From an uncultured bacterium (GTDB lineage: Bacteria; Bacillota_I; Bacilli_A; RFN20; CAG-826): DNA of 64,000 bases. Positions 2,704 to 63,989 of the stretch are shown here, one piece after another; positions within the stretch are counted from its first letter, which is position 1; each line of letters opens with the position of its first letter. The stretch covers positions 113,051-177,050 of the forward strand of contig CASGAB010000002.1 in the NCBI GenBank assembly GCA_949299395.1. Direction: 5' to 3'. The translations under genes and the position numbers were made by a program. The notes beneath the pieces are model-generated. The model worked only from the letters and a program-made list of their open reading frames with translations. It did no database searches and was not told where the DNA came from.

Positions 2704-2704
2704 A

Positions 2705-3520: not shown

Positions 3521-4824
3521 TGAAATACTATCTTGCGATAGATTTGGGTGCGACCTCCGGCAGACATGTGATTGGCTTTCAGAATGGTGGAAAAATCATC
3601 CTAAAAGAGATTCATCGATTTAAAACTCAAATGGACGATTCTCCAGATGGTTTAGTTTGGGATCTTCCGCGCATCTATAACGAGATCAAATTTGGTATTA
3701 AAAAAGCGTTTGAAGAGTACCCAGTTATCGAGTCAATTTCTATCGATACTTGGGGAGTTGATTATGTCCTCATAAACGGAGATAAAGAGATTCCTCCATA
3801 TTATGCATATAGGAATGAAAGATGCCAAAAAAGTGCGCAAAAAGTCCATAAAATCGTGAATTTTGACGATATTTATATAAAAACTGGTATTCAATTCGCT
3901 GCCTTTAATACCTTATATCAACTCTTTGATGATAAAGAAAAAGGCAGATTGGTTGAAGCCACCGATTACTTGATGTTACCAAGCTATTTCACATTTAAAC
4001 TCACTGGAGTTAAGACCCATGAATATACAAATGAATCTACTGGTAGTTTATTAAACGCAAAAACTGGTGAATATGATTATGAACTATTAGATAGATTAGG
4101 ACTTCCAAGAAAACTATTTGGAGAGATTAGAAAGCCAGGAGTTGTAGTGGGAGAGTTGCTTCCAGAGATTCAAAAAGAAGTTGTAGGCAATTCAAAAGTG
4201 ATCTTATGCGCATCACATGATACAGGAAGTGCGTTTGAATCAGTGAATATTGATGATGATTCAATAATCCTCAGTAGTGGAACTTGGTCATTATTAGGAA
4301 TCAAAACCAATGGACCAATTATCTCTAATGAATCACTTGAAGCAAATTACACGAACGAAGGAGGAGTGGGATACATCAGATTCCTCAAGAACATCATGGG
4401 AATGTACCTCGCTAATCGAGTGATAGACGAAACTGGATTAGATTTCAAAACGCTTGATAGCCTCATCTTCGATAGTGATTATAAAGAAACCTTCGATATT
4501 CATGATAGTGGTTTGAATGCTCCTAAAAAGATGAAAAAAGCGATATTGGAGTTATTAAAGAAGAATCCTCCTAAAAACGACATTGATTTATTCGCCTCAA
4601 TATATCGATCTCAAGCGGTGTGCTATAAGAAAGCAATTGATGAACTAGAGAAAATAACAAAGAAGAAATATAAAAAGATTTACATTATTGGAGGAGGAGC
4701 TAGAAACCTCTTCCTCAACCACATGGTTAAAGAATATACAGGATTAAAAGTTATCCCAATGCCAATTGAAGCAACGGCATTAGGAAACATATTAGTACAA
4801 ATGAAAGCGAGCAAAGAATTATGA
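3520..4824 (+). CDS. rhaB: Rhamnulokinase (FGGY carbohydrate kinase).
   Basis: Start ATG overlaps the rhaD stop (TAATG), with GGAG upstream. N-terminal AIDLGATSGR, FGGY-like length; TGA stop overlapping the rhaA ATG. Confidence 0.8.
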   Translation: MKYYLAIDLGATSGRHVIGFQNGGKIILKEIHRFKTQMDDSPDGLVWDLPRIYNEIKFGIKKAFEEYPVIESISIDTWGVDYVLINGDKEIPPYYAYRNERCQKSAQKVHKIVNFDDIYIKTGIQFAAFNTLYQLFDDKEKGRLVEATDYLMLPSYFTFKLTGVKTHEYTNESTGSLLNAKTGEYDYELLDRLGLPRKLFGEIRKPGVVVGELLPEIQKEVVGNSKVILCASHDTGSAFESVNIDDDSIILSSGTWSLLGIKTNGPIISNESLEANYTNEGGVGYIRFLKNIMGMYLANRVIDETGLDFKTLDSLIFDSDYKETFDIHDSGLNAPKKMKKAILELLKKNPPKNDIDLFASIYRSQAVCYKKAIDELEKITKKKYKKIYIIGGGARNLFLNHMVKEYTGLKVIPMPIEATALGNILVQMKASKEL

Positions 4825-6053
4825 GAAAAGAAGTGAAAGAAATTTATGCATCCTACGGAGTGGATGTCTCTAAAGCCCTTAAAGAATTAGCAAAAACCAA
4901 AATCTCTTTACATTGTTGGCAACTTGATGATGTAAATGGATTTGAGCAAGAAGGAAGCTTAACCGGTGGTATTCAAACAACCGGAAACTATCCAGGAAAA
5001 GCAAGAAACTTTAAAGAATTAACTCAAGACTTGGATAAGGCTCTTAGTTATATCCCAGGAAGCAAGAAGATTAATCTTCATGCGATTTATCAAACTGGCA
5101 AGATTGTGGAAAGAAATGAAGTCGGAATTGAGCAATTTAAAGATTGGGTTAGCTATGCTAAAGAAAGAGGATTAGGCTTAGACTATAACCCAACTATCTT
5201 TTCTCATCCAATGCTTGTTGATGGTCTATCCTTATCTTCTCCAGATGAAAAAGTAAGAGAATACTGGATTAAACATTGCGTTGAAGGATTAAAGATTACT
5301 GAACATTTTGCTAAAGAAACTGGACAAAAATCTTTAATGAATATCTGGATTCCTGATGGTTTAAAGGATGTTCCTGCGGATAGACTAGGCCCTAGAAAAA
5401 GATTAAAAGATTCTTTAGACAAGATTCTTGCCGGATATAAATATGATAAAAAAGTCATGGACGTCTCTGTCGAAAGTAAGGTATTCGGCATTGGGGTGGA
5501 AAGCTACACTGTTGGCAGTAATGAATTCTATTTGAACTACGCTGCTAGTAGACATATTTGTTGTTTATTAGACACTGGGCACTTTCATCCAACTGAAAAT
5601 GTTGCTGATAAGATTTCTAGTATGTTCTGTTATTACGATAAGTTAGCGTTCCATGTTTCTAGACCAGTGAGATGGGATAGTGATCATGTTTTAAAGCTTA
5701 ATGATGATCTTCAAGATGTTGCAGACGAACTCGTTAAATGTGATGGCTTACAAAGAAGCTATATTGGATTAGATTATTTTGATGCTTCTATTAATAGAAT
5801 TGCGGCGATGGTTATCGGGGCAAGAAATATGGAGAAAGCTCTTCTTAGAGCGTTATTAACTCCATGGAATTTATTAAAAAAAGCTCAAGATAATTACGAT
5901 CACACCAAAGTTCTTGCTTTGCAAGAGGAATTAAAAACACTGCCTTGGGGTGAAGTTTGGGACGAATATATTAAACGCCAAGGAATGGTCAGTGATGCTC
6001 AAATGTTTGAAGAAGTAAGAGTGTACGAAAAAGAAGTTTTGTCTAAACGATAA
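4821..6053 (+). CDS. rhaA: L-rhamnose isomerase.
   Basis: 410 aa; matches the E. coli RhaA N-terminus (SLHCWQxDDVxGFE, GGIQTTGNYPGKARN). Confidence 0.85.
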   Translation: MRKEVKEIYASYGVDVSKALKELAKTKISLHCWQLDDVNGFEQEGSLTGGIQTTGNYPGKARNFKELTQDLDKALSYIPGSKKINLHAIYQTGKIVERNEVGIEQFKDWVSYAKERGLGLDYNPTIFSHPMLVDGLSLSSPDEKVREYWIKHCVEGLKITEHFAKETGQKSLMNIWIPDGLKDVPADRLGPRKRLKDSLDKILAGYKYDKKVMDVSVESKVFGIGVESYTVGSNEFYLNYAASRHICCLLDTGHFHPTENVADKISSMFCYYDKLAFHVSRPVRWDSDHVLKLNDDLQDVADELVKCDGLQRSYIGLDYFDASINRIAAMVIGARNMEKALLRALLTPWNLLKKAQDNYDHTKVLALQEELKTLPWGEVWDEYIKRQGMVSDAQMFEEVRVYEKEVLSKR

Positions 6054-6065
6054 TTAAAAATATTA

Positions 6066-6204
6066 AACCTCGTGTCCGTCCAGATTTTTCACGGGGTTTT
6101 TATGTGTCCAGTTACAAATTGATTAAAGTCGTATTCACAAGACCAAATATAGCAAATAATGTTTAAGAATAAAAAAACACGCACTTTTATGTACGTGTCT
6201 AGAC
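6066..6204. repeat. Copy A of a ~140-bp direct repeat (CCTCGTGTCCGTCCAG ... AAAAACACGcACTTTTAtgTACGTGT hairpin).
   Basis: Both ends match copy B at 6568-6712 directly; the middle diverges. Confidence 0.6.
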
Positions 6205-6420
6205 AATCAATGTACCTTCCCCATTTCTTTTGCCCAATGGGTATTAACTCTTGCCTACATTAAACTAGATTACAATTATTTTGTAAAGATAATCGATATC
6301 GATATGGACTCATGCCTTAACATGAAATGTCGCAGAATAAAATTTTATAGTTTGGGTTTTGTGTGGTTTTGATAGAAAAAATGCTTTAAAAAACTTCAAC
6401 ATCTAGTGGGGTCAAAAAAT

Positions 6421-6456
6421 AAAAAGATTGGAAGACCGAAATACCAATCCTTTTTA
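6421..6456. terminator. Hairpin GATTGG-N12-CCAATC flanked by an A-run and a T-run (bidirectional terminator-like) in the middle of the noncoding region.
   Basis: Seen in sequence. Confidence 0.35.
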
Positions 6457-6567
6457 TATGGTAATTATTTGTTCCTGTTTCGATTGATATAAAGGACTAT
6501 TTTTCTCATCCTTTCAAACACATGTCAATGTCACTCCCAAAACCAACATTATCATTATGGCGTTTAC

Positions 6568-6712
6568 AACCCTCGTGTCTGTCCAGTTTTAATAAGGGGT
6601 TTAAAGAGTAACCCTATATGACTCTCAACCAGGTGGAATAAAAATACTAAATATATTAAAAATCTTCAAAAAAGTAATAAAAAACACGTATTTTTACGTA
6701 CGTGTTTCGACA
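6568..6712. repeat. Copy B of the ~140-bp direct repeat. It ends in a perfect 9-bp hairpin (AAACACGTA/TACGTGTTT) that acts as a minus-strand terminator for tRNA-Ser.
   Basis: Direct comparison with copy A. The hairpin at 6682-6707 is followed by a T-run on the minus strand. Confidence 0.6.
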
Positions 6713-6720
6713 TTTAATCG

Positions 6721-6809
6721 TGGCGGAGAAAAGGGGATTTGAACCCCTGCGCCTGTTACAGCCTACGAGCTTTCCAAGCCCGCCCCTTCAGCCTCTTGGG
6801 TATTTCTCC
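6721..6809 (-). tRNA. tRNA-Ser (anticodon GGA), long variable arm, CCA encoded.
   Basis: Reverse complement folds as a cloverleaf: acceptor GGAGAAA/TTTCTCC, anticodon stem CGGGC/GCTCG with loop TTGGAAA, T-arm AGGGG-TTCAAAT-CCCCT. Confidence 0.85.
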
Positions 6810-6880
6810 ATCTTTTATTTGTATAAGCTCTTTTAAAGCCTTATTATTTTATCATTAGGGTAATATAAAGTCACTTAAAA

Positions 6881-7852
6881 ATGAAAGAATTTGTAATAAC
6901 ACATAATGATAAAAATCAACGAGTTGATAAGTTTGTAAAAAAATATTTAAAGAATGCTCCGTTATCTTTTATTTATAAAACTTTCCGTAAAAAAGATATT
7001 AAAGTTAATGGAAAATGGGTAAAAGAGAACTACATTTTAAATGAAAATGACGTTTTGAGAATCTATATTAGCGATGAAAAAATCGCCGAATTTTTAAGTG
7101 ATAGTTTTGAAAATATTAAATATAATTTTGAAATTATTTATGAAGATCAAAATATCTTAATAATAAATAAAGATAGAGGAATCTTAATTCATGGCGATAA
7201 TAATGAGAAAAAATATACTTTATCAAATGAAGTTTTATCTTATTTAATAGATAAGGGTGAATATTCTCCTCGAAATGATAACTTTATTCCTTCTCCAATT
7301 CATCGACTTGACCGAAATACATCTGGATTAATAATTTTTGCTAAAAATTTAATGGCTTTTAAAGAAGGAAGCGACTTATTTAAAAATAAGATAGAGATAG
7401 AAAAGCATTATCTTGCTTTAGTTTTTGGTGAAACTAAAGAAAAAGGCGAAATTAATGCCCCTTTATTAAAAAATAGTAAGACAAATACCGTCAAAGTTGA
7501 TTATCAAAATGGTAAAGATTCATTAACAAAATATGAAAAAATCGCTGGAAATAATAAATATTCATTATTAAATGTAAATTTAATTACTGGAAGAACTCAT
7601 CAAATTAGAGTTCATTTAGCTTATATTCATTATCCAATTGTTGGGGATGAAAAGTATGGAAATTTTGTATTAAATAAAGATTTTAATAAAGAATTTAAAT
7701 ATGAAAAACAATTTTTACATGCGTATTCTTTAACTTTTAAAGATATAAAAGGTGAACTTTCTTATTTATCAAATAAAACCTTTTATGCGCCGCTTAAAAA
7801 GGATGAAAAGAATATATTAAATAATTTGAATTTTAATATAGAAAAAAATTAA
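6881..7852 (+). CDS. RluA-family 23S rRNA pseudouridine synthase (RluD/RluC-like, with an N-terminal S4 domain).
   Basis: HRLDRNTSGLIIFAKN catalytic motif; 323 aa. Confidence 0.8.
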   Translation: MKEFVITHNDKNQRVDKFVKKYLKNAPLSFIYKTFRKKDIKVNGKWVKENYILNENDVLRIYISDEKIAEFLSDSFENIKYNFEIIYEDQNILIINKDRGILIHGDNNEKKYTLSNEVLSYLIDKGEYSPRNDNFIPSPIHRLDRNTSGLIIFAKNLMAFKEGSDLFKNKIEIEKHYLALVFGETKEKGEINAPLLKNSKTNTVKVDYQNGKDSLTKYEKIAGNNKYSLLNVNLITGRTHQIRVHLAYIHYPIVGDEKYGNFVLNKDFNKEFKYEKQFLHAYSLTFKDIKGELSYLSNKTFYAPLKKDEKNILNNLNFNIEKN

Positions 7853-7881
7853 AATATTAATATTAAAAAAAGGAAATTTGT

Positions 7882-9594
7882 ATGAAAGAAATCGTTAAAA
7901 AGAACTTAGAAAGATGGTTAAATTCTTCTCGTGTAAGTGCTGAAGATAAAGCAAAGTTAAATGCAATGAGTGAAGAACAACTTGATGATGCATTTTTTAA
8001 AAATATTGCTTTTGGAACCGCTGGAATTAGAGGAATTTTAGGTCCTGGAACTAATAGAATGAATTATTTTACAGTTTTAAAAGCAACTGTTGGTTTTGGA
8101 CTTTATTTAAAAGAATTATATAAAGATTTAGACTCAATAAGTGTTGCGATTTCTCATGATAATCGTCATTTTAGTAGAGAATTCACATTAGAAAGTGCTG
8201 AAATTTTAAATAAAATGGGAATTAATACTTATATTTTTGATTCATTAAGACCAACCCCAGAACTTTCTTATGCAGTTAGATATAAAAAATGCCAAGGCGG
8301 AATTATGATTACTGCTTCACATAACCCAAAAGAACATAATGGTTATAAAGTTTATGATGAAGAAGGTTGCCAATTAGTTCCTTCAAAAATTAAAAGATTA
8401 ATTGAAATTATCGGCTCTTTAAATGATGAATTAAACGTTGATGTTCCACTTTCTGATAAGCCTGGTAAAAACGAAGTTTTAGGACCAGATGTTGATGAAA
8501 CATATGTAAAAGAAGTAGAAAAAATTGTTATTGATCCTGCTTTAGATAAGAAAAATTTCAAAATTGTTTATTCACCAAATCATGGAACAAGTTTTGTTAA
8601 TGCAATGAAAGTTTTCAAAGATGAAGGTTATGAAGTTTATCCTGTAACTTCTCAATGTCCTCCAGATCCAAACTTTAGTGCTACACTTTCTCCAAATCCA
8701 GAAGATCCTAGAGCATTTATTGAAAGTATTAAATTAGCTAATGAAATTGGTGCTGATCAAATTTGTATGACTGACCCAGATGGAGATAGAGTTGGTTTAG
8801 CAACAAAACTTCCTAATGGCGAATTTGCTTTAATGACTGGAAATGAATCAGCTGCAATTTTACTAGATTACATCCTTATTCATAAAAAAGAAAAAGGCGA
8901 AGATTTATCAAAATATGTTGTTTATAACACAGTTGTTTCTTCAATGTTAGGTAAAGCAATTTGTGATTATTATGGCGTAAGAATCGAATCTTTCTTAACT
9001 GGATTTAAGTATATTGGTGATAGAATTCATCATTATGAAGTTAATGGTGGATATGAATTCTTATTTGGATATGAAGAAAGTTATGGGTGTTTAGCCTCAC
9101 CATTTGTTAGAGATAAAGACGGCATCCAAGCAATCCTTTTATATAGTGAAATGGGTTTAGCATATCATTTAAAAGGAAAGAATTTAGTCGAAGCTTATGA
9201 TGAAATTTGTAATAAGGTTGGAAAATTCTATCATTCAGAATTATTTAATATTTATTTTGAAGGTAGTGAAGGTCAAGCAAAAATGGATTCTATTATGACT
9301 CGACTTGAAACTGACCCATTTAAAGAAATTAATGGTAAAAAAGTTTCTGTTATCGAAAATTATTTCAAATTAACAAGAAAAGATTTATTAACTGGTGAAG
9401 AAACTCCAATTGAAGGATTACCAAAAGGTGATTTAGTTAAGTTCTATTTTGAAGATGGTAGTAATATTGCTATTAGACCAAGTGGAACCGAACCAAAATG
9501 TAAATTCTATATCGAAGTTTGTGCTAAAAATAGAAAAGAAGCAGAAGGAAAACCTGCGGAATTATTTGAAGAATTAAAGAAGAACTTACTCTAA
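7882..9594 (+). CDS. pgcA: Phosphoglucomutase/phosphomannomutase (alpha-D-phosphohexomutase, PgcA-like).
   Basis: TASHNP phosphoserine motif (GGIMITASHNPKEHNGYK); 570 aa, like the B. subtilis PgcA size; aggaa RBS. Confidence 0.8.
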   Translation: MKEIVKKNLERWLNSSRVSAEDKAKLNAMSEEQLDDAFFKNIAFGTAGIRGILGPGTNRMNYFTVLKATVGFGLYLKELYKDLDSISVAISHDNRHFSREFTLESAEILNKMGINTYIFDSLRPTPELSYAVRYKKCQGGIMITASHNPKEHNGYKVYDEEGCQLVPSKIKRLIEIIGSLNDELNVDVPLSDKPGKNEVLGPDVDETYVKEVEKIVIDPALDKKNFKIVYSPNHGTSFVNAMKVFKDEGYEVYPVTSQCPPDPNFSATLSPNPEDPRAFIESIKLANEIGADQICMTDPDGDRVGLATKLPNGEFALMTGNESAAILLDYILIHKKEKGEDLSKYVVYNTVVSSMLGKAICDYYGVRIESFLTGFKYIGDRIHHYEVNGGYEFLFGYEESYGCLASPFVRDKDGIQAILLYSEMGLAYHLKGKNLVEAYDEICNKVGKFYHSELFNIYFEGSEGQAKMDSIMTRLETDPFKEINGKKVSVIENYFKLTRKDLLTGEETPIEGLPKGDLVKFYFEDGSNIAIRPSGTEPKCKFYIEVCAKNRKEAEGKPAELFEELKKNLL

Positions 9595-9619
9595 TATAAA
9601 AAAAGGGATAGGCTAAGAC

Positions 9620-10462
9620 TTATCCCTTTTTCTTTTGAAAGAATTTTTTAAGTTCTTCAATTACTCCATCATGATTATTATCAAATTCAGTAATATATTT
9701 TGCGGCATATCTTATTTTTGGATTGCCATTTTTCATTAAAAATGAGTTAGGAAACATTTCTAACATTTCAATATCATTATCTGCATCTCCAAAAACTAAA
9801 ACATGATCTTTATCTATATTTAAATAGCTAGCAACATCGAGTAAGGTTTTGGCTTTTGAAACATCTTTAACATGAATTTCAGCATAAGGACAATCCCGCC
9901 AAAATCTAATTCGATATTTTTTATCTTTATCTAGTTCTCTAACTTTTTCGATTAATTTTGCTTTAGTTTCTTCACTTTCATCAATTATTTTTATAACAAA
10001 GGTAAAGGTAGGAGTATTTAAGATTTTATCAGCAGAATCTATTTTTACTTCAAGATTTCCTTTTTCAAAGAAAGCGAATAAAAATTCATCATCATTATCG
10101 CAAAAAATCGTAGTTTCATTTTCCGCTAAATATGATATAACTCCCTTATTTATTGTTTCTTTATATAAAAAAATAGAGAAATTTTCATCAATTTTATGAT
10201 GAAAAGTTTTGAAATTTTCATTTTTAGGATCAAATGATAATGCCCCATTATATGCAACAATAGGAGAAGTCAGATTTAAAAAATCGTAGTATTTTTGAAT
10301 ACTACGAGGAGCTCTACCAGAGCAAAGAACTATTAAATGACCTTCTTTTTCTAGCTGATTTAAATATTCTTTTGTTTTTAAAGAAATTTCTTTCTCATCA
10401 TTTAATAAAGTTCCATCTAAATCGAGGGCAATTAAATATTTATTATTTTCCATAAATACCAA
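9620..10462 (-). CDS. Cof-type HAD-IIB hydrolase (sugar-phosphate phosphatase-like).
   Basis: LIALDLDGTLL motif I, a C-terminal GDxxND motif, 280 aa. Confidence 0.75.
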   Translation of the reverse strand: MVFMENNKYLIALDLDGTLLNDEKEISLKTKEYLNQLEKEGHLIVLCSGRAPRSIQKYYDFLNLTSPIVAYNGALSFDPKNENFKTFHHKIDENFSIFLYKETINKGVISYLAENETTIFCDNDDEFLFAFFEKGNLEVKIDSADKILNTPTFTFVIKIIDESEETKAKLIEKVRELDKDKKYRIRFWRDCPYAEIHVKDVSKAKTLLDVASYLNIDKDHVLVFGDADNDIEMLEMFPNSFLMKNGNPKIRYAAKYITEFDNNHDGVIEELKKFFQKKKG

Positions 10463-18999: not shown

Positions 19000-19131
19000 A
19001 AATTTGTTTTGAAGGATAAATATACCAAAGACAGTAACGGGCTAGTCCTTAATAATGTTACCGAGGTTAATTAATATAAATAAATATATCAACCTTATGT
19101 ATATATATCCTCAATATATAGGAGGTAAAAG
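19000..19131 (+). promoter_or_regulatory. Possible L10-leader-type autoregulatory mRNA leader ahead of rplJ-rplL.
   Basis: 132-nt leader with hairpin GTAAC-N18-GTTAC. Its position matches the Firmicute L10 leader, but the consensus was not verified. Confidence 0.3.
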
Positions 19132-28268: not shown

Positions 28269-28295
28269 AAAAAGAGGCTCCGGCCTCTTTTTTTA
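28269..28295. terminator. Bidirectional rho-independent terminator (GAGGC-tccg-GCCTC) between rpoC and the convergent gene.
   Basis: Seen in sequence. Confidence 0.7.
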
Positions 28296-28763
28296 TGTAT
28301 ACAAGTAGTAATTTGATTTTAAATATAAAGCATTTTTTAAATTATCAAAGTTAGAATCAATATAATAAATGTGTTCTAATGTTCGATCTTTTTGATCAAC
28401 AATTAGTTTTCCTTCATAAACTTTTATAAAAATATTTTCATAAGTTTTCTTAATTAGAGGTAAGTAGAAGTTCAAATTTTTTAAAAATATATCATCATAA
28501 AGTTTATTTGAAATAACTTTAAAAACTTTTAAATTAAAACTTCTTATAATGTCTTCTTCGTTTTTACACTTTTCTTTTATATTGGTAAATAAATATGTAA
28601 ATGCATTTTCAATCAAAGAATCTCGATTTAATTTCTTTTTATAATAATAAGACGTAGAAATTTTTAAATATTTGCAGATAGTTTCTTTATTTAAAATTGT
28701 TAAATCTTTACTAAAAAATAAATCAAAAATTTTAATATATAGTTTTTCTTCACTTATTGACAT
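28293..28763 (-). CDS. Small regulator, possibly TetR/AcrR-like (N-terminal HTH ICKYLKISTSYYYKKKLNRDSL).
   Basis: 156 aa; the pattern resembles the TetR HTH consensus (IAxxxGxSxGxLYxxFxxKExL). Divergent from the protease gene. Confidence 0.35.
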   Translation of the reverse strand: MSISEEKLYIKIFDLFFSKDLTILNKETICKYLKISTSYYYKKKLNRDSLIENAFTYLFTNIKEKCKNEEDIIRSFNLKVFKVISNKLYDDIFLKNLNFYLPLIKKTYENIFIKVYEGKLIVDQKDRTLEHIYYIDSNFDNLKNALYLKSNYYLYT

Positions 28764-39347: not shown

Positions 39348-39404
39348 TTGAGCATTTTTATCTTGAATATTTTCTAAAATAATCTACTATATTAGGTTGT
39401 AAAG

Positions 39405-39618
39405 ATTGATAGAGGCGCGATCAAAAAGAGTAATTAATGGAGGAGACATCCGATGAAGTTAATGAAAGGTGCGATCGCCGAAACAAGTTTAAGGTATTAA
39501 ACTTGATTGGTCTATGGGAGAAGATCCTTATAGACTCCTAGAAATTCTAGAGGCGCTATCGATGTAAATCTTTTAAAAAGTTAAGATTGCATCGAGCGAT
39601 GCAATCTTTTTGTTTTTA
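39405..39618 (+). promoter_or_regulatory. Lysine riboswitch (L-box) with an intrinsic terminator (39583-39618).
   Basis: Conserved L-box blocks are present: GAUAGAGGCGCGAUC...AGAGUA, UGGAGGAG, GGUGCGAUCGCCGAAAC, AGAGGCGCUAUC. A terminator hairpin AAGATTGCATCG/GATGCAATCTT + T-run sits immediately before the RBS. Confidence 0.8.
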
Positions 39619-39630
39619 AAGGAGATAAAT

Positions 39631-40515
39631 ATGAATAAAAAATTATTAACTTTAGGAGTAATTGTTACTTTATTTGGTACTGCATTAACTTCCTGTGGAA
39701 AAAGTGGTTTAACCGTTTCTAACGATGTTTTAGTTATTGGAATGGAAGCAAATTATCAACCATTTAACTGGACTACTTATAGTGAAACTGAATATACTCT
39801 TCCTATTTATGGTACAAATGAATTTGCTGATGGATATGATGTTTCAATTGCTAAATATTTAAGTGAAGAAACTGGAAAAGATGTTTATATTAAAAGAATT
39901 GTTTGGGATAGTTTAATTCCTTCGCTTCAACAAGATGAAGTTAATCTTGTTTTAGCAGGTATGACTGATACTCCAGAAAGAAGAGAATCAATTGATTTTA
40001 CAGATCCATATTTAACAAGCGATTTAGCTTTCTTAATTAGAACTGAAGATATGCCAGAAGGATATGGTACAGAAGATAATCCAGCAACATATGAACAATT
40101 ATTAGAATTATTTGATGGTCAAACATTAGTTTGCCAAGCTAATGTTGTTGGCGATGGATTTATCGATACTTATTTTGTTAATAATAATCAAGGTAAAACT
40201 ATTAGACATGCAAATCCTCAATTAACTTACCCTTCAGCAGCTAATGAAGTTAAAGGTGGAGTTTCATTTGCAATGCCTGCAGAACTCCCAGTTATTGAAA
40301 CTATGACTAATCTTGGTGGTTTAAGTGTTTTATACTGTGATTATAAGAGCTTCTTAAGTGAAGAAGATTTAAATGGTTTATCAGTTTCTATCGGTGTTAA
40401 AAAAGGAAATACTGAATTAACCGAAGAAATCAATGCCGCTTTAGCAAAATTAAATGATGATGATAGAAATAAAATGATGGGGGATGCTGCTTCTAGAAGC
40501 GCAAATAACGCATAA
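39631..40515 (+). CDS. Amino-acid ABC transporter substrate-binding lipoprotein (likely lysine or basic amino acid).
   Basis: aaaggag RBS; signal peptide with lipobox LTSC; PBP type-2 fold features. Confidence 0.75.
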   Translation: MNKKLLTLGVIVTLFGTALTSCGKSGLTVSNDVLVIGMEANYQPFNWTTYSETEYTLPIYGTNEFADGYDVSIAKYLSEETGKDVYIKRIVWDSLIPSLQQDEVNLVLAGMTDTPERRESIDFTDPYLTSDLAFLIRTEDMPEGYGTEDNPATYEQLLELFDGQTLVCQANVVGDGFIDTYFVNNNQGKTIRHANPQLTYPSAANEVKGGVSFAMPAELPVIETMTNLGGLSVLYCDYKSFLSEEDLNGLSVSIGVKKGNTELTEEINAALAKLNDDDRNKMMGDAASRSANNA

Positions 40516-47687: not shown

Positions 47688-48869
47688 ATGAAAGTATTTA
47701 TTATAGGTTCATCTTCAGCCGGATTATTTCTTAGTATTTATTTAAAAATTGCTAAACCTTCTTTAGATGTTTTTGCTATAGAAAAAAACGAGCAAATTGC
47801 TAAAAAGATGTATGCAACGGGTAATGGAAGATGTAATATTACAAATCTTAATTTAATCGATGAAGCATATAATTCAGATGAAACTAATGAAATAGTTAAA
47901 AATTTTGATGCTTTGAAAATTATCGATTATTTAAATAATAAATTAGGAATTTTAACAACCTCGATTGATGGTCTTATTTATCCATATTCTTTAAGTGCAA
48001 AAAGTTTTGTCGATTCGCTTATTAAAAATGCAAAAGAACTCGGCGTAAAATTTTTATTAAATGAAAAACTTATAGATTATAAAATTAATGAAAATATTAA
48101 TATAAAGACTTCAAATGCCGATTATATTGCTGATTTTTTAATCTTTGCTACCGGAGGAAAATCTTCTCCTAACTTAGGAAGCGACGGAAATATTTTTTCT
48201 ATATTAGAAAAACATAATTATGAAATCAGTTCTTTAAAAGCAGGACTCACGCCAATAAAAGTAAATGAAAAGCTCGCTGAAATTGAAAACGAAAGATTAA
48301 AAACAGTTATTACTTTAAAAATTGATGAAAAAATCTATAAAGAAGAAGGGGAAGTTATTTTCAAAAAAGATCGAATCAGCGGAATTGTTTCTTTCAATGT
48401 TTCCTCAATAATAAAAAGATATTTATTAAGAAAAAATACCAATGATATTTCGCTTTCTTTAGATTTAATGCCTGATTTTAGTGAAGACTCTTTAGTAAAA
48501 CTCCTTAACAATTTCAAAAAAGTTAATGAAAACTTCTTAGAAGGAATCTTCTCCAAACGAATTGCTTCCTTTTTAAATAAAAGATTTAAAAAAGAAATTG
48601 ATTCTTCAAATCTTGAAGCTATTTCAAAAGGACTTATGAACTTAGAATTTACTTATAAATATGATGATGATTTTGCTTCATCTCAAGTTACAGTTGGTGG
48701 AGTTGAATATTTAAATCTTAATAGTGAATTAGAATCTAAAAACGAAAAAAACACCTATTTTATCGGCGAAATTTTAAATGCTGATGGATTATGTGGTGGT
48801 TATAATATTACTTTTGCTTTTGCTAGTGCTAAAAAAGCAGCTGATAGTATTATTAAAAAAATAAATTAG
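47688..48869 (+). CDS. HI0933/BaiN-family flavoprotein (aminoacetone-oxidase-like NAD(FAD)-utilising dehydrogenase).
   Basis: ATGNGRCNITN family motif; the N-terminal dinucleotide fold (IIGSSSAGL) is a degenerate GxGxxG. Confidence 0.65.
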   Translation: MKVFIIGSSSAGLFLSIYLKIAKPSLDVFAIEKNEQIAKKMYATGNGRCNITNLNLIDEAYNSDETNEIVKNFDALKIIDYLNNKLGILTTSIDGLIYPYSLSAKSFVDSLIKNAKELGVKFLLNEKLIDYKINENINIKTSNADYIADFLIFATGGKSSPNLGSDGNIFSILEKHNYEISSLKAGLTPIKVNEKLAEIENERLKTVITLKIDEKIYKEEGEVIFKKDRISGIVSFNVSSIIKRYLLRKNTNDISLSLDLMPDFSEDSLVKLLNNFKKVNENFLEGIFSKRIASFLNKRFKKEIDSSNLEAISKGLMNLEFTYKYDDDFASSQVTVGGVEYLNLNSELESKNEKNTYFIGEILNADGLCGGYNITFAFASAKKAADSIIKKIN

Positions 48870-50959: not shown

Positions 50960-51036
50960 TGGGGCGAAATACCGGGATCGAACCGGTGAATGCTTGGTTC
51001 ACAGCCAAGTGAGTTAACCGCTTCTCCAATTTCGCC
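50960..51036 (-). tRNA. tRNA-His (anticodon GUG).
   Basis: Reverse complement: acceptor GGCGAAA/TTTCGCC, anticodon stem CTTGG/CCAAG with loop CTGTGAA, T-arm CCGG-TTCGATC-CCGG, 3' CCA. Confidence 0.8.
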
Positions 51037-56990: not shown

Positions 56991-58121
56991 ATGGCGACTA
57001 TTAAGAATTTTTTAAAATTAAAAAAGGATGATTCTTTTAAAAAGACTCCTCTTTGTGAAAGCGATATTGTTGCTTTGACAGCACTTTCTTATGCTGATTT
57101 TAAAAATTCTATTTATTTTGATGAGAAAACAACTCATGGAATGGTACCTTTAAGTATTTTCGGAAAAAATACAATTATTTCAAAACTTAAAAAGAAATAT
57201 TTAGCATTAGGAAGAGGTTATATCCAATTTTTAAGCCTTCTTTTTTCTGCTTCTAGATATGAAGATGTAAAAATTGGTTATTTCTGTGATCGATTTAATG
57301 AAGACAAAGATACACAATTTTTCGCTCTAACTTATTATATTGATGGAAAATATGTAATAGTTTTTCGAGGAACTGATAATACGATAACTGGCTGGAAAGA
57401 AGATCTTAACATGGCTTTAATGGAAAAAATTCCAGCTCAAAAATTAGCTAGAGATTATGCTAGAAAAGTTTTAAAAGAAGTAAAAGGAAAAGTTTATATT
57501 GCGGGTCACTCAAAGGGTGGAAATCTTGCGTATTATACATATTTCAACCTCAATAAAAGAGAAAGAAATAGAATAAAGTTTGTTTATAATTTTGATGGTC
57601 CTGGTTTTAGAGATGATGAATATGATTACAGTGAATATGGAAAAAAATTCCATAAATATGTAACAGAAGACGATATTATTGGGATGATTTTTGATACTTC
57701 AAATAACTGGGAAATTGTTCCTTCAACAAGAATTAATATTTCAGCTCATGATTTATTAACCTGGAAACTTGATAGAAAAACAAAATATACAACACTCCAA
57801 AGACTGAGTAGTTTAACTGTTTATTCTAGCTGTTTTAACACAACTTTTAATACTTGGTATTATCAAACGAACAGAAAAGATGCAAAAACTTTAACAAAAT
57901 TTGTTTTTGATTTAGTTGAAACTAATAAAATTATGACTCTAGGTGGCTTACTTAAAGATATTCTTTTTGCGGGTGAGGCTTATTATAAAACTATTGAAAA
58001 TTATGATGAAGCAAGTAAAAAGAAGATTAGACTGATGCTTAGAGAACTTGGGAAATTATATTTAAGTAACTTATTAAAAGATAAAAAGAAAATAGATAAA
58101 CCAAAAGAAGAGGTAAAATAA
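56991..58121 (+). CDS. DUF2974/Mbeg1-like alpha/beta hydrolase (class-3 lipase-like).
   Basis: GHSKGGNLA nucleophile elbow; 376 aa. Confidence 0.6.
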
Positions 58122-59596
58122 TGCAAAAATATGTTTTAACTATTGATCAAGGTACAACATCGACTAGAGCTTCTTTAATCGACAAAGAAGGCAATGTTTT
58201 TTATAAATCTCAACAAGAGATTAAATGTTTTTTTCCTCATGATGGATGGGTAGAACAAGATGCCATTGATGTTTGGTTATCCGTATTAAATGTCATAAAT
58301 GATTTATTAGCAAAAACTAATTTAACATATGCCAATATTGATTCAATTGGCTTAACAAATCAAAGAGAAACAACAATTATTTGGGATAAAAAAACAGGAA
58401 TGCCTGTTTATAATGCCTTAGTTTGGCAATCAAGACAATCTGCGTATATTTGTGATGCTTTAGCTGATAAAACTCAACTTGTTAGAGAAAAAACGGGCTT
58501 AATTATTAATCCTTATTTTAGCGCTTCTAAAATTCGTTTCATCTTAGATCATATAGAAAATGGACAAAAAAGAGCAGAAAATGGCGAATTAATGTTTGGA
58601 ACAATTGATACATGGGTTATGTATAAACTTTCTAGTGGAAAGATTTTTAAAACTGATGTTACAAATGCTTCTAGAACAATGTTATTTAATATTAATACAC
58701 TTGAATGGGATGATGAACTTTTAAGATTATTTAATATTCCTAAAATTATGTTACCTGAAGTTTGCCCTTCATCTCATTTTTTCGGTTACGCATCTTTATT
58801 AAAAAAGAATTTAAAGATTTGTGGTGTAGCGGGCGATCAACAAGCAGCATTATTTGGGCAAAACTGTGTTAAAGAGGGTGATGTTAAATCTACCTATGGC
58901 ACTGGATGCTTCGTTTTAATGAATGTTGGTGAAAAACCAATTTATGATAAGGGTGGACTTATTACTACAATAGCATGGCAAATTGATGAAAAAGTAATTT
59001 ATGCAATTGAGGGTTCTGTTTTTGTCGCCGGAGCTTCAATTCAATGGTTAAGAGATCAAATGAGAATGATTAAAAAAGCATCAGAAAGCGAAAAATATGC
59101 TTTAAATTGTGATTCTTGTTTGGGCGTTTATGTAGTTCCTGCTTTTGTTGGGTTAGGCGCTCCTTATTGGGATGATGACTGTCGCGGTGCAGTTTTTGGA
59201 TTAACTAGAGGGACAACAAAAGAACATTTTATTAGAGCTACTTTAAATTCAATTGCTCTTCAAACAAAAGATGTAATTAAAGAAATGGAAAGAATTTCTT
59301 CTAAAAAAATCGATAGTTTAAGAGTCGATGGTGGAGCTAGTGAAAATAATTATTTAATGCAATATCAATCAGATATTTTATCTTCTAAAGTAATTTTACC
59401 TAAGAATTTAGAAACAACATCTTTAGGCGCTGCCTATTTAGCAGGTTTAGCTAGTGGATATTGGAAAAATATCGACGAAATAAGTAAAGTACATAAGATT
59501 CAAAAAACTTTTGAACCAAAAATGGCTCAAGAGGAAGTATTAGAAATTGATAAAAAGTGGAAAAAAGCAATCGAAGCAACTAGAATTTTCAAATAA
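58121..59596 (+). CDS. glpK: Glycerol kinase.
   Basis: FGGY motifs ([22 protein letters not shown]); 491 aa. Confidence 0.9.
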
Positions 59597-59607: not shown

Positions 59608-60585
59608 ATGCTGTATTATTTCTTGTTTAATAACTTTGAAGAACAAGTTTTGTTTGCGATAAAAAATATAGAAAAAATTAATGATTATAATATTATTTAT
59701 CCGAAATATTATAATTTTTTTGTCAAACATTTATTTAAGAAAAATTCGATAAATATCAATAATAATGGAAATAAAAATTTATTTTTAGGATGCGACGATC
59801 TTTTAAAAAATAAAGAAATAAAGGAAGAAGAGCTTTATGAAGAAAATGTTATAATTTTTGCTTCTAGTGAATTAAAGAATAAGAGTTTTATAAATATTAA
59901 GCTTTATTTAAAAGAGGAAACTTTAAAAAAGAAGTTATTTTCCTTGAAAATTCCACCATTATTTGACTATAAAAACCTAATAGCAGCTTCATTTTGTCCT
60001 TTTAGTGTATATTTAATTAATTTATATAATTTGAATTTAAATGATAACTCAATAGACAATACTTTTTTAGAGTCAACATATCTTCCTAAATTTCAAAATG
60101 ATTATGATGAAAATTTTGAAAAACATATAAAAATATTTGATAAAGAAATCACAATGCCATGCCGATATCATTGCAAGGATTCTGAAGGGGAAGTTTATAT
60201 TTTTAATAAAAATGTTTTCGATATGAACTCGATTTACGTTAGTTTGTGCTTGTTAAAAAGCGAAAATGTCGATATTAATGGTGTTTATTATATCAATAAC
60301 GAAGAAAAACATAATTGTTTAAAAGGCTTAACAAATCTTGATATCGGATTTAAAGATATTGATCCTTTTTCTATAGAAAATGAATCTTATATAATTGAAA
60401 AACTCTTTAAAAATGATAAATCCGATAAAATAAAAACTACTTCATTAGGCTTTAAAAATAGTTATTTAGATTGGTCAAAAATAATTAATAATTTATTACT
60501 AATTCTTAAAAATAATAAATTTAGTAAACAAAAGATTCCAAACTGCAAAATATGTAAATTTAGCGATTTATGTGAACTTTATTAG
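59608..60585 (+). CDS. Cas4/AddB-like PD-(D/E)XK-superfamily nuclease with a 4Fe-4S iron-staple, and an N-terminal ~125-aa extension of unknown function.
   Basis: N-terminal cysteine in the FCPFSVYL context (compare Cas4 YCPRRFYL). The extreme C-terminus CKICKFSDLC is CX2CX5C, nearly identical in pattern to Cas4 CKYCIFSVIC. The KIKTTS stretch sits where the EIKTS motif III lies. No SD sequence. Confidence 0.5.
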   Translation: MLYYFLFNNFEEQVLFAIKNIEKINDYNIIYPKYYNFFVKHLFKKNSININNNGNKNLFLGCDDLLKNKEIKEEELYEENVIIFASSELKNKSFINIKLYLKEETLKKKLFSLKIPPLFDYKNLIAASFCPFSVYLINLYNLNLNDNSIDNTFLESTYLPKFQNDYDENFEKHIKIFDKEITMPCRYHCKDSEGEVYIFNKNVFDMNSIYVSLCLLKSENVDINGVYYINNEEKHNCLKGLTNLDIGFKDIDPFSIENESYIIEKLFKNDKSDKIKTTSLGFKNSYLDWSKIINNLLLILKNNKFSKQKIPNCKICKFSDLCELY

Positions 60586-60587
60586 TT

Positions 60588-61997
60588 ATGAGATTGTTAA
60601 AATATATCAATGATACGCCCCGTCATTTAATAGAGGTTGATGATTGGAATTCATTTTTTGGCGAATTATCGACTCCAATAATTATTAAAAAAGAAGGAGA
60701 TTTAATTTCTTTAATTGAAAAAATTAAGGTCAGTGAAGCTCGATATTTTTTTGATGAAAGAACAATTTCTTTTAAGGTTGCTTCAAACGTTTCTTTTAAG
60801 AAGCTTAAAGATATAGATGATTTTAATAACTTATTTATCCAAGATAACGAGGAAGCCATTAATATTGAGGAAGACTTTTTAATATCGCTATTAAAGTCTA
60901 CGATTTTTAATGGTGAAGTTTTTGATGAAATTAAGAAAGTTAAAACATTAAAAATTAAGTTAAGAGCAAAAGATTTTAGCTATATTAAAAAATACTTAGA
61001 GGAAAACAAAAACAAAATTATCAAACTAGATCTTTATAAACTGATGTTAGATATTTCAAAAAGTGGCAAAAATGTCGCTTTATCAGAATTAAATTATATT
61101 CCTTATGAATATAACTCAAATAACGTTCAGGTTCTTAATATTTTTAAAGATTTAAATTTAAAAAACAGTTTAATGAATAATTTTTTGAATGATTTTAAGA
61201 ACTTCTCATTCGGCTCTTTTGTTGAATTTTTTAAAAATAATAAAGAAAAAATAGAAATAAAAAGATTTAAAACTAATAGTGAATTATTTAATAAGATTTT
61301 GATGACTAAATCTAAACAGATAATTTTTGAAGATAAAGATGATTTAGATGATTTTAAAAATTATTTGTTATCCTTAAATGTAAATGTCTTTAATATTGAA
61401 AAGATAGAAAAAAGAGTTGTTAGTTTTTTAATTTATATTTATGAATATCTTTTAGAGATCCCAAATAACGTGAGTAAAGTTTTATTAAAAAAGATAGATA
61501 TTTATAACTTAATAAACGAAAAAATTAATTATTTTAAAAATAATTTAGATATTTTTACCTTTTTAATAGAAGAAGTTGGTCTTTATGAATTATATGATGA
61601 TTTAGATTCACATTATTTGATTAATGAACTTATAAACATTTCAATTAATCATGACATCAAAACTTTTTACAATATCTTAAGAATAATTAAAGATTTAGAT
61701 CTTTCGTTTTTAAGTAATATAGATGAAAATATCAAACTTTTTAGTATTCAGGAGCTCACTTATATTAATAAAAAAGGAAGTGAAAATGTGTTAGTTTTAT
61801 CTCAAAAACGTAAAAAATATACTGAAAATGTTTTATATAAAGGAATAATAATGAAAAATTCATTATTTCTTAAAGAGATATTAAGGTTATCTAAGCATTT
61901 AATTATTTTTAAAAAAGGGCAATATGACGAAAAAATATTTAAGAAAGAGCGAATTGATTCGCTTGCCTTTCTTATTAAATTATTGTCCTATTTGTAG
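60588..61997 (+). CDS. Hypothetical 469-aa protein, K/N/I/L-rich, no recognisable domain.
   Basis: Uninterrupted ORF, 3-nt spacing from the upstream gene, no SD. Confidence 0.5.
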   Translation: MRLLKYINDTPRHLIEVDDWNSFFGELSTPIIIKKEGDLISLIEKIKVSEARYFFDERTISFKVASNVSFKKLKDIDDFNNLFIQDNEEAINIEEDFLISLLKSTIFNGEVFDEIKKVKTLKIKLRAKDFSYIKKYLEENKNKIIKLDLYKLMLDISKSGKNVALSELNYIPYEYNSNNVQVLNIFKDLNLKNSLMNNFLNDFKNFSFGSFVEFFKNNKEKIEIKRFKTNSELFNKILMTKSKQIIFEDKDDLDDFKNYLLSLNVNVFNIEKIEKRVVSFLIYIYEYLLEIPNNVSKVLLKKIDIYNLINEKINYFKNNLDIFTFLIEEVGLYELYDDLDSHYLINELINISINHDIKTFYNILRIIKDLDLSFLSNIDENIKLFSIQELTYINKKGSENVLVLSQKRKKYTENVLYKGIIMKNSLFLKEILRLSKHLIIFKKGQYDEKIFKKERIDSLAFLIKLLSYL

Positions 61998-62020
61998 TAT
62001 TATTTCTTTAGGCGTTAAAA

Positions 62021-63175
62021 ATGAAAGTTGCAAAAATTAATAAAGAACAATTAGAAAATATTTTAAAAGGATTAAATGTAACTCCTCAAGCTTTTGAATA
62101 TTTAGACCAAATCTATGATATTTATGAAAATGTTACAGATGGAGCTTTTGAGGTTTTAAATGCTGCTGTTTTTAAAGAATATAATGCAATAAATCCGGTT
62201 GTTATCGTTCTTTATATTATTAACGAACTTGGTTTTTATTTTAATAGTAGAGGCATGAATAAAGAAGGAATTAAAGCTTCTTTTAATGATGAAAATTTCA
62301 TTTCTTTTATTTGTTCAATTGTTTGTGATAAATATTTAACTAATGAACAACTTAACTATAAATCTCCAGCATTTTTAAATAAGTTTAACCCTCAAATATC
62401 GACTTTATCGCTATATCTTAATTTTTGTTTAAACATTTTAAATAAAGACATGAAGTTAAATAAATACGATTCTTTAATTAAAGATATGTTAAAGAATTCG
62501 TTTTCTTTAGCTCAATGTATCGTCAATCTTTTAGTTAATGCTTTCGAAGTTGAAGCTTTTTCAACTTGGAGAACGATGCATGAAAATGAATGTATTTTAT
62601 ATTGTTTAGTTAAAAATGGCGTAAAAACATTCGATTCCTATTTTAGACATATTCAATATTCTTTAGCATATCGTGGACAAATAAAAGATAAAGAAAAAAC
62701 TGATGAAATTTTCCAAGAAATAAAGCAAATCATGAAAGAACATGATTTAAAAAGTAAAGATATGAAAAAATTCATCGAATATGGTTATCTTTTTTCAATT
62801 GAAAATAAAGAATTAAACGTTGATTTTAAACTTAATTTTAGAGATGGTGTTGAGACTTTAGCAGGTTTAAAACATTATTCAAAAATATATGAATTATCTA
62901 GTGAAATTGCGCATTCTTCGCCACTTTTAATTTTTTCTAATCGTGAATATTATTTTAATATTACTCTTTTAAATTTGTATGAATCATTTTTTAGATTAGA
63001 ATCCGTTTTCTTGGGTTTTTATAAAGCTGTATCAACAAAAAATGAAGCTGCACACTATGAGACTTTAGAAAAAGTCTATCTTGCACAGCTTCATAATATT
63101 CATGATGGAATAGCTAGAGCTTTAAAAATTAGAGCTTCTAAGGCTGGACATCTCGATAACAAGAGCCGCCAATAA
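62021..63175 (+). CDS. Hypothetical 384-aa protein with a C-terminal Rx5H (HEPN-like) motif, KIRASKAGH.
   Basis: Uninterrupted ORF with no recognisable family. The motif observation is weak. Confidence 0.45.
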   Translation: MKVAKINKEQLENILKGLNVTPQAFEYLDQIYDIYENVTDGAFEVLNAAVFKEYNAINPVVIVLYIINELGFYFNSRGMNKEGIKASFNDENFISFICSIVCDKYLTNEQLNYKSPAFLNKFNPQISTLSLYLNFCLNILNKDMKLNKYDSLIKDMLKNSFSLAQCIVNLLVNAFEVEAFSTWRTMHENECILYCLVKNGVKTFDSYFRHIQYSLAYRGQIKDKEKTDEIFQEIKQIMKEHDLKSKDMKKFIEYGYLFSIENKELNVDFKLNFRDGVETLAGLKHYSKIYELSSEIAHSSPLLIFSNREYYFNITLLNLYESFFRLESVFLGFYKAVSTKNEAAHYETLEKVYLAQLHNIHDGIARALKIRASKAGHLDNKSRQ

Positions 63176-63989
63176 ATTCTTTTAATATTGAATTACAAGG
63201 GATATAAGTTTCATCGATATCAATAAAATATTTTAATAATTTGATTAATCTTTCAGCATCAGGCCCAAAAGGTCCGTCTTTATCGATATTATTTAATAAT
63301 GGAAGAGCATATTTTTTCATAATGCACAATTCATAATTTAAGAATGAATCAAAGACATAATCAGCGTATTCTTGAGTTTGATAAATCCATTTAAATTCAC
63401 CTCTTCTAACTGAAGGCCACATTGAAATTGTTTCTTCAGCTGATGAATTACGATATTTTGAATCTCTAACAATTCTTCTGATTAATCTAATATCGGTAAT
63501 AGAAATCGGGTTTTCATAATCTATATTGATTTGAGCTTGAGGTGAAATATAAATTTTAAATTTAATATGTTTAGGAATTAAAGGAGTCATTGCTTCATTT
63601 AAAGCATGAATTCCTTCAATAATAATTGGATCATTTGGTCCGATTTTTAATTTTCGATTAAAGATTCTTTGGTTAGTTTTAAAATCAAAGCGAGGCAAAT
63701 TAACTTCTTCGCCACTTAATAAAGCAAGAACATTTTGGTTAAAGAGTTCAACATCTAAAGCATCGATACTTTCGTAATCTTTATTTCCATCTTCATCAAA
63801 AGGAACATTTTCTCTAGTTTTATAGTAATCATCGATAGAAATTCTAACTGGATTTATACCTCTAGAGATAAGTTCAAGAGTTAAACGATCGGCAAAAGTA
63901 GTTTTTCCGCTACTTGAAGGACCTGCAATACAAATTAATCGAATATTTTTAATCTTATCTTGAATAATTTGTCCAAGTTCAGTAAGCAT
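63138..63989 (-). CDS. P-loop nucleoside kinase of the uridine kinase/phosphoribulokinase family. The N-terminus may continue beyond the window.
   Basis: IAGPSSSGKTT Walker A; 283 aa visible. Overlaps the 3' end of the convergent 62021 gene by 38 nt. Confidence 0.6.
   Translation of the reverse strand: MLTELGQIIQDKIKNIRLICIAGPSSSGKTTFADRLTLELISRGINPVRISIDDYYKTRENVPFDEDGNKDYESIDALDVELFNQNVLALLSGEEVNLPRFDFKTNQRIFNRKLKIGPNDPIIIEGIHALNEAMTPLIPKHIKFKIYISPQAQINIDYENPISITDIRLIRRIVRDSKYRNSSAEETISMWPSVRRGEFKWIYQTQEYADYVFDSFLNYELCIMKKYALPLLNNIDKDGPFGPDAERLIKLLKYFIDIDETYIPCNSILKEFIGGSCYRDVQP

Follow-up and report, generated by a model that had tools for sequence, protein, structure and literature searches.

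A probable addB-addA leftover, shrunken and with a proposed residual non-catalytic role, between glpK and a DUF5677 gene in uncultured Bacilli

Within a 64,000-nucleotide (nt) stretch of DNA from an uncultured member of the Bacilli (contig CASGAB010000002.1; the whole stretch is referred to here as the window), three genes follow the glycerol kinase gene glpK on the + strand and encode proteins that we call p1 (325 amino acids (aa), positions 59608..60585), p2 (469 aa, 60588..61997) and p3 (384 aa, 62021..63175). A preliminary description of this block had proposed an undescribed defence or accessory system, consisting of a Cas4-like iron-sulphur (Fe-S) nuclease and two large unmatched partners. 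Our comparison with related genomes indicates that p1 and p2 are probably the shrunken, fast-evolving leftover of an addB-addA operon that retains a residual, non-catalytic role, p1 being the remnant of AddB (RexB) and p2 a fast-evolving protein in the addA slot. AddAB, or RexAB, is a helicase-nuclease that resects double-strand breaks. The third protein, p3, belongs to the DUF5677 family, and its gene is a conserved chromosomal gene that is independent of p1 and p2 and merely lies downstream of them.

The interval between glpK and p3 was compared across 29 loci from other species, anchored on the 548-aa uridine-kinase-like gene that lies convergently downstream of p3, together with 62 metagenome loci retrieved with the p3 profile and a few more obtained through exact look-ups of p3 homologues; a metagenome scan with the single p3 sequence found nothing. 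The 5' anchor of the slot is glpK (58121..59596 in the window, + strand, with Pfam FGGY_N and FGGY_C matches on the identical contig), which is 64–88% identical in relatives and stands directly 5' of addB, p1 or p3. In related uncultured Bacilli, the interval occurs in three states, namely a full addB-addA pair, p1/p2-like genes, or no gene at all.

The full state, with addB (759–801 aa) and addA (1005–1057 aa), was found at ten loci (L012, L016, L017, L020, L030, L033, L040, L041, L052 and L058), and L043 has addA and an addB fragment cut by the contig end. The AddB-like proteins of these relatives carry a C-terminal Pfam PDDEXK_1 domain (E 1e-24), have addB_Gpos as their best NCBIfam model (E 5e-11) and keep the motifs CPF...CX2CX5C, GxID, (I/V)DYK and LQLPxY. 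Their AddA-like proteins match UvrD-helicase (E 2e-52), UvrD_C and a C-terminal PDDEXK_1, with addA_Gpos as the best NCBIfam model (E 1e-97 to 1e-102), and have every superfamily 1 (SF1) helicase motif and the nuclease motifs intact. Judged by these sequences, the full state is a compact addB-addA operon. The slot is empty, with glpK abutting p3, at L010, L019, L022, L034, L044–46, L048–51, L055, L097, L099 and L102.

Genes resembling p1 and p2 occupy the slot only in a single clade, that of the window. Both genes are present in the window, L007 and L008; L005 and L006 have p1 and a p2 broken into two open reading frames (ORFs); L009 has p2 only, p1 being missing; and in L095 and L100 the C-terminal part of p1 and p2 form one continuous frame. 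A neighbour-joining tree of p3 recovers this remnant clade as monophyletic, with an empty-slot clade as its sister group, and embeds it among clades that bear addBA; both slot genes were lost completely at least three independent times. The p1 gene has the same slot, order and orientation as addB, directly upstream of the addA position, and the B-then-A order is that of AddAB/RexAB of B. subtilis (PMC3321194) and of the bona fide addB-addA of the relatives. Because p1 and p2 sit in exactly the addB-addA slot, order and orientation, we regard them as vertically inherited remnants and not as an acquired cassette. The ancestral order in these uncultured, low-GC Bacilli with reduced genomes would have been glpK-addB-addA-DUF5677, and in one clade proteins of ~780 and ~1020 aa would have shrunk to ~325 and ~470 aa.

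Homology of p1 to AddB is visible only in a clade-specific profile comparison, since standard models miss AddB in this family. When the p1 family was aligned with the AddB-like family using hhalign, a score of 41.8 (P 2e-4) was obtained over the C-terminal 88 columns; the maximum among column-shuffled controls was 24.9, none of the 120 reached 41.8, and a control alignment of the p1 profile with AddA gave P 0.64. Two further collinear blocks align, one being the CPF motif and the other joining the p1 N-terminus to the AddB helicase-like region, where p1 3–127 matches AddB 173–281 (E 0.007) and p1 1–57 matches AddB 155–220 (P 0.084) as collinear secondary hhalign matches. The similarity is significant for the C-terminal domain and weak, although collinear, for the helicase-like domain. 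The N-terminal segment of ~110 aa that bears this weak trace (59608..59937) is absent from the 236-aa forms of L005–L007, and p1 does not contain the large N-terminal inactivated SF1 helicase-like (Chi-scanning) domain of AddB.

The standard models show how far p1 has diverged. The window p1 has no match to the AddB family models (TIGR02773, PF12705) at E ≤ 1, and a Pfam scan at E ≤ 10 of 13 p1/p2 family members gave marginal PDDEXK_1 (PF12705) matches in only two (E 0.054). Pfam searches with p1 and p2 themselves gave sub-threshold matches or none, neither protein matches any NCBIfam model, cas4 included, and a search of PDB sequences with the p1 profile yielded no meaningful match. An exhaustive HMMER search of 1.84 billion representatives returned three proteins, p1 itself and two others, all from the remnant clade.

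The iron-staple signature of p1 is the part that persists. Its first cysteine, C130, lies in FCPFSVYL (aa 129–136; 59992..60015), and the remaining three, C313, C316 and C322, form a terminal CX2CX5C (CKICKFSDLC, aa 313–322; 60544..60573), both of which the preliminary description had read correctly. The spacing of the latter three is that of C1121/C1124/C1130 in B. subtilis AddB, where they form an iron staple with C801 (PMC3321194). C313, C316 and C322 occur without exception in the p1-like sequences examined, fused forms included, at ~30% overall identity. C130 aligns with the CPF(R/K)FY of AddB-like proteins; a first cysteine is present in the window, P0007, L005–7, L095 and L100 and absent only in L008.

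The canonical PD-(D/E)XK motifs (GxID, hhDYK and QhxxY) are not recognisable in p1, a correspondence that was judged by eye. The stretch expected to hold the catalytic Asp and (D/E)xK is ~85 residues shorter than in AddB. A candidate degenerate motif III, YIFNK (60196..60210), was matched by eye to the canonical hh-D-Y-K of AddB; K201 is invariant in the p1 family, and the residue two before it is F, L or K, never acidic. The best-conserved p1 motif is GLTNLD (60325..60342), with invariant G240, T242 and N243, which lies within the C-terminal block aligned by hhalign and by eye resembles L-K-G-I-T-L-Y-N of the L030 AddB. Sequence comparison thus places p1 as AddB-derived, with the canonical nuclease site apparently gone. 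Of the earlier assignment of p1 to the Cas4/AddB/Dna2-type nucleases, an AddB-type iron-staple descent stands, and the canonical PD-(D/E)XK motifs and the stand-alone Cas4-like reading do not.

Cas4 is a CRISPR-associated exonuclease of the iron-staple PD-(D/E)XK type (PMC3466216), and p1 resembles it in belonging to the four-cysteine iron-staple class and in the ~200-aa, Cas4-like size of its C-terminal part. Unlike Cas4, however, p1 has no match to TIGR00372, whereas the AddB of relatives does match this model; its catalytic motifs are not recognisable and its ancestry is AddB, not a cas locus. As had been described, no CRISPR-like repeat array was found in the 64 kb, which were not scanned for cas genes.

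In the fused frames of L095 (5194-6990) and L100 (678-2645), the reading frame is open for 62 and 125 codons, respectively, 5' of the first ATG/GTG/TTG. This open stretch includes the first-cysteine motif, which points to a non-canonical start (ATT or ATA?) or a sequencing error.

The second protein, p2, lacks Walker A (GxGKT), DExQ, any other SF1A motif (III–VI) and any cysteine, and it has no match in Pfam, NCBIfam, PADLOC, PHROGs or PDB sequences, so that the earlier description of it as unmatched holds. A search with the p2 profile returned only p2 itself and P0009, and its homologues are confined to the remnant clade. We infer an AddA origin for p2 from its position, its orientation, its tight coupling to an AddB-derived gene and the lack of an outside donor. 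Motif matching of p2 to AddA by eye produced three mutually incompatible alignments (to Walker B, to helicase motifs IV–VI and to nuclease motifs II–III), and by-eye assignment was for this reason rejected as evidence.

In another lineage, a short contig (L103 1-300) carries a 99-aa C-terminal fragment (P0117) of the gene 5' of p3, with the sequence YAFNENENNIVFVGSINSIVGTCDRLIFIDDFEHK. By eye, this fragment is similar to AddA nuclease motifs II–III (NNInGxIDLM...IDYK), a likeness that is not significant against shuffles. The full gene, which the short contig does not cover, could be an intermediate at an earlier stage of decay.

Evolutionary rates within the slot differ markedly from those of its flanks. 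Between the window and L005–7, identity is 86–88% for glpK and 72–74% for p3, as compared to 30–35% for p1 and 24–26% for p2. Nei-Gojobori ratios of nonsynonymous to synonymous substitution rates (dN/dS) among L005–L007 are 0.05 for glpK, 0.07–0.09 for p3, 0.19–0.26 for p1 and 0.23–0.51 for p2, values that are rough because the synonymous divergence (dS) of 0.7–1.1 is near saturation.

Composition follows the same pattern. With GC contents of 0.213 and 0.214, p1 and p2 are the second and third most AT-rich of the 54 ORFs scored, and F, L, I, M, N, K and Y together make up 63% of their residues. At the first and second codon positions, their GC is the lowest in the window (ranks 1–4 of 54); at the third position (GC3) it is above the median. 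AT-richness at codon positions 1 and 2 but not 3 is better read as drift of the amino-acid sequence, with constraint relaxed and the genome biased towards AT, than as a foreign signature, and the GC comparison with core genes that had been suggested as a check thus speaks against a foreign origin. Horizontal acquisition of p1 and p2 was rejected on account of their native GC3 and vertical synteny. That the whole block is the most AT-rich coding sequence of the window applies nearly to p1 and p2 and not to p3, which ranks 11th (GC 0.255). The most AT-rich ORF (28293-28763, − strand, 156 aa, GC 0.176) is flanked by rpoC and a subtilase gene; Pfam gives no match for it, and F, L, I, M, N, K and Y account for 66% of its residues.

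On the whole, we regard p1 and p2 as a new, degenerate variant of AddAB that does not qualify as functional AddB, AddA or Cas4. The pair totals ~800 aa, compared to ~1800 aa in the compact AddAB of relatives; unlike AddAB, p2 lacks Walker A/B, the other SF1 motifs and a recognisable nuclease domain, p1 lacks the canonical D / (D/E)xK / QhxxY motifs, both evolve very fast, and in two lineages they share a single fused frame. With no motor motifs in p2 and no recognisable nuclease motifs in p1, we infer that the pair is unable to unwind and resect DNA as AddAB does, and it cannot be an ATP-driven resection machine. In the scenario that we propose, p1 would have kept the four-cysteine iron staple and a trace of the helicase-like domain while the recognisable catalytic motifs were lost, and the two genes would still encode the parts of a bipartite Fe-S protein that has kept some non-catalytic role, as suggested by the open frames, the weak purifying selection and the fusion.

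The 4Fe-4S iron staple of AddAB, which is located close to the AddA interface, is required both to bind DNA ends and to keep the AddB nuclease domain folded and stable (PMC3321194). As the iron-staple domain binds DNA ends in AddAB, DNA-end binding would be the most likely role of p1 and p2, and the most economical guess is that the two, which presumably form a complex, are a residual Fe-S-dependent DNA-end-binding or structural assembly.

Several observations weigh against an addB-addA leftover of this kind. No similarity between p2 and the AddA of relatives was detected: in BLAST, HMMER and hhalign comparisons, run at full length, with each terminal half of p2 set against segments 1A and 2A and the nuclease segment, and with the C-termini only, p2 stayed at the noise level of shuffled controls (hhalign score 15.9, equal to the shuffle mean; P 0.2–0.9 over the tests), and its proposed AddA ancestry is thus read from position. 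The AlphaFold2 (AF2) model of p2, based on a two-sequence alignment, has a confidence (predicted local distance difference test, pLDDT) of 32 and is unusable. In p1, the segment in which catalytic motifs were compared by eye is not alignable, and the protein may have an atypical active site. The near-saturated dS makes the evidence for purifying selection approximate. Finally, the split p2 of L005 and L006, the missing p1 of L009 and the loss of both genes in the sister clade point to ongoing decay and to a dispensable pair.

A more specific version of the proposal goes further, in that AddAB would have been re-purposed into a motor-less Fe-S heterodimer, lacking canonical nuclease motifs and fused in some lineages, which one clade of genome-reduced gut Bacilli would have kept once classical AddAB function had been given up. 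Its new role would not involve resection; it could, for example, cap or sense DNA ends. We regard this as possible and put it forward tentatively.

Alternatively, p1 and p2 could be functionless addBA pseudogenes on their way to deletion, with open frames and sub-neutral dN/dS as a lag effect. No recognisable catalytic motif is left, the composition at codon positions 1 and 2 has drifted towards mutational equilibrium, and dN/dS in p1 and p2 is 3–8 times that of the neighbouring genes; the broken and missing copies just mentioned fit as well, as does the complete loss of both genes in the sister clade and in other clades on at least three occasions. However, 325 and 469 codons remain open despite a local off-frame stop rate of 0.14–0.15 per codon, at which the chance of such an open frame is ~1e-21 for p1 and ~1e-34 for p2. 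Orthologous frames are also open across a clade in which p3 is ~60–73% and p2 less than 25% identical, each of the three close pairs has a dN/dS clearly under 1, and the frames of L095 and L100 were fused and not destroyed. Open frames across a deep clade, dN/dS below 1, the three invariant cysteines and in-frame fusion in two lineages argue for a weakly constrained protein and not dead DNA. Accordingly, p1 and p2 are probably not dead pseudogenes, and we consider this alternative unlikely.

It is similarly improbable, in our assessment, that p2 is not derived from AddA at all and is a lineage-specific new or replacement gene at the addA position beside an AddB remnant. The failure of every test to find AddA similarity and the confinement of the p2 family to one clade would fit such a gene; however, its position, orientation and tight coupling to an AddB-derived gene are the same as those of addA, and no outside homologue was found that could have been the donor. 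Given that p1, whose ancestry is demonstrable, is itself barely detectable as AddB, a total loss of signal in the faster-evolving p2 is plausible.

AddAB/RecBCD-type enzymes restrict phage DNA, and defence genes often diverge very fast and are AT-rich, as p1 and p2 are. In addition, p1 bears the iron-staple cysteine signature, and the DUF5677 domain has been reported to be enriched in the vicinity of serine recombinases of Bacillota (PMC12632615). It is nonetheless highly improbable that the three genes make up an undescribed system, for anti-phage defence or an accessory function, around a stand-alone Cas4-like Fe-S nuclease. The p1 and p2 genes derive from addBA at this very site, their GC3 being native, p1 has no recognisable canonical nuclease active site, p1, p2 and p3 each match 0 families in PADLOC-DB 2.0 at E ≤ 1 and have no significant match in PHROGs, no integrase, repeats or other island hallmarks were seen flanking the block, and the three genes were not observed together on mobile islands elsewhere. 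Conservation of p3 does not depend on p1 and p2, every lineage examined has it in a housekeeping context, and the DUF5677 ORF assayed in PMC12632615 was not among the protective ones. Asked whether the three genes co-occur and move together, the neighbourhoods show that p1 and p2 are inherited vertically in place and that p3 is kept without them, so the block is not a three-gene module. The genes are in large part what the preliminary description had named as refuting its own proposal, namely conserved, in syntenic positions and of housekeeping origin, and a false lead towards a new defence system is thereby removed.

With p1 and p2 read as an addB-addA leftover, the locus offers a fairly clean natural series of the dismantling of a repair machine during genome reduction, with the full enzyme, a miniature without catalytic motifs, a fused form, a single partner and complete loss all represented at one site. 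If the miniature pair is functional, the iron-staple module would be the part of AddAB worth keeping without the motor, and the pair could serve as a minimal model of Fe-S-dependent DNA-end binding.

The third gene has a history of its own. Contrary to the earlier statement that both partners match nothing, p3 matches the DUF5677 family (Pfam PF18928) with E 1.1e-11, at 45.6 bits against a gathering cutoff of 27.1 and over profile positions 7–153 of 166. The match falls on a conserved core (aa 156–302; 62486..62926, + strand) in which pLDDT exceeds 90 over most of the stretch; the AF2 model of this all-alpha protein as a whole has a pLDDT of 87. Of the candidates scored in a p3 profile search, 1517 were homologues at E ≤ 0.001; the 120 that were listed all carry PF18928 and are unnamed or 'hypothetical'. 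The phage and plasmid collections yielded no p3 homologue. Residues R184, H187, E188, E190, H210, R218, R274, E291, E295 and H298 are invariant and cluster in the high-confidence core, and p3 may be a metal-dependent enzyme. Neither a structure search with p3 nor a search of PDB sequences with its profile returned a specific or meaningful match.

An HEPN-like Rx5H motif at the end of p3 had also been pointed out. The sequence is there (R371–H377; 63131..63151), but it is not a conserved motif, being absent or different in most orthologues, and it lies in a tail where pLDDT drops to 56 and then 36. Starting at residue 373, the p3 gene and the convergent kinase gene share 38 nt at their 3' ends (63138-63175), which probably explains why the tail 'HLDNK' is conserved in close relatives. 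Unlike HEPN RNases, p3 has no conserved Rx4-6H motif, and HEPN appeared in the structure search only at rank 35 among hundreds of generic helix-bundle matches.

In essentially all relatives, p3 (50–74% identical) adjoins the kinase gene, irrespective of whether the slot is full, holds a remnant or is empty. Among the 29 metagenome loci with p3 orthologues (L033–L059), the kinase gene lies -15 to +133 nt from the p3 stop in 22; the other seven are mostly short contigs. This tail-to-tail neighbour, a uridine-kinase-like (PRK) gene of 548 aa whose 3' part occupies 63138..63989 on the − strand of the window, matches Pfam PRK and NCBIfam udk (E 1e-26 to 3e-29). The p3 subfamily is thus chromosomal, with fixed synteny in small-genome Bacilli, unlike the recombinase-associated members of PMC12632615.

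More distant DUF5677 homologues (34–42% identity; L060, L061, L074, L080 and L082, around positions 6000–10400) are directly followed by a tRNA/rRNA (uracil-5) methyltransferase gene. The gene on their 5' side encodes an HI0933-like flavoprotein in L061 and L080, a permease in L060 and, in L074 and L082, a product that Pfam does not match; an HI0933-like gene is also present in the window, at 47688-48869. Together with the uridine-kinase-like neighbour of p3, the uracil-5 methyltransferase neighbours hint at a link of DUF5677 to uracil or RNA metabolism, and the family may merit attention as a large, conserved and uncharacterised one with invariant His, Glu and Arg residues.

As to the layout of the block, the three co-directional ORFs are tightly packed, as had been described, with 11, 2 and 23 nt between glpK and p1, p1 and p2, and p2 and p3, respectively. 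An assembly artefact was rejected, because five independently assembled contigs, from different assemblies of the uncultured Bacilli metagenome-assembled genome, encode identical proteins. The lack of a Shine-Dalgarno sequence, which had been singled out as a distinctive trait, is not one, in that GGAG or GAGG occurs within 20 nt upstream of only 20 of the 54 ORFs and most neighbours in the glp cluster lack it too, glpK excepted. A promoter and terminator scan was uninformative, with promoter-like sites rarer than in shuffles. The terminator scan listed a GC-containing hairpin (GAGCGAATTGATTCGCTT) at 61947-61964 (+), within the last 50 nt of p2 and poor in its T-tract, which could attenuate read-through into p3.

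The block is surrounded by glp genes, the kinase gene and the ATP synthase operon. On the 5' side of glpK, the window has one Mbeg1-like (lipase-like) gene (56991-58121), and L095 has two in tandem (1393-3691; 375 and 379 aa). Between addA and p3, L040 carries a 215-aa ORF (7364-8011) that is absent from the lineage of the window, and addA-p3 gaps of similar size are found in L033, L041, L043 and L058. Elsewhere in the window, Rfam searches identified a lysine riboswitch (39402-39566) upstream of an ORF at 39610-40515, a ribosomal protein L10 leader (19007-19108) and two tRNA genes on the minus strand (6724-6809 and 50963-51035).

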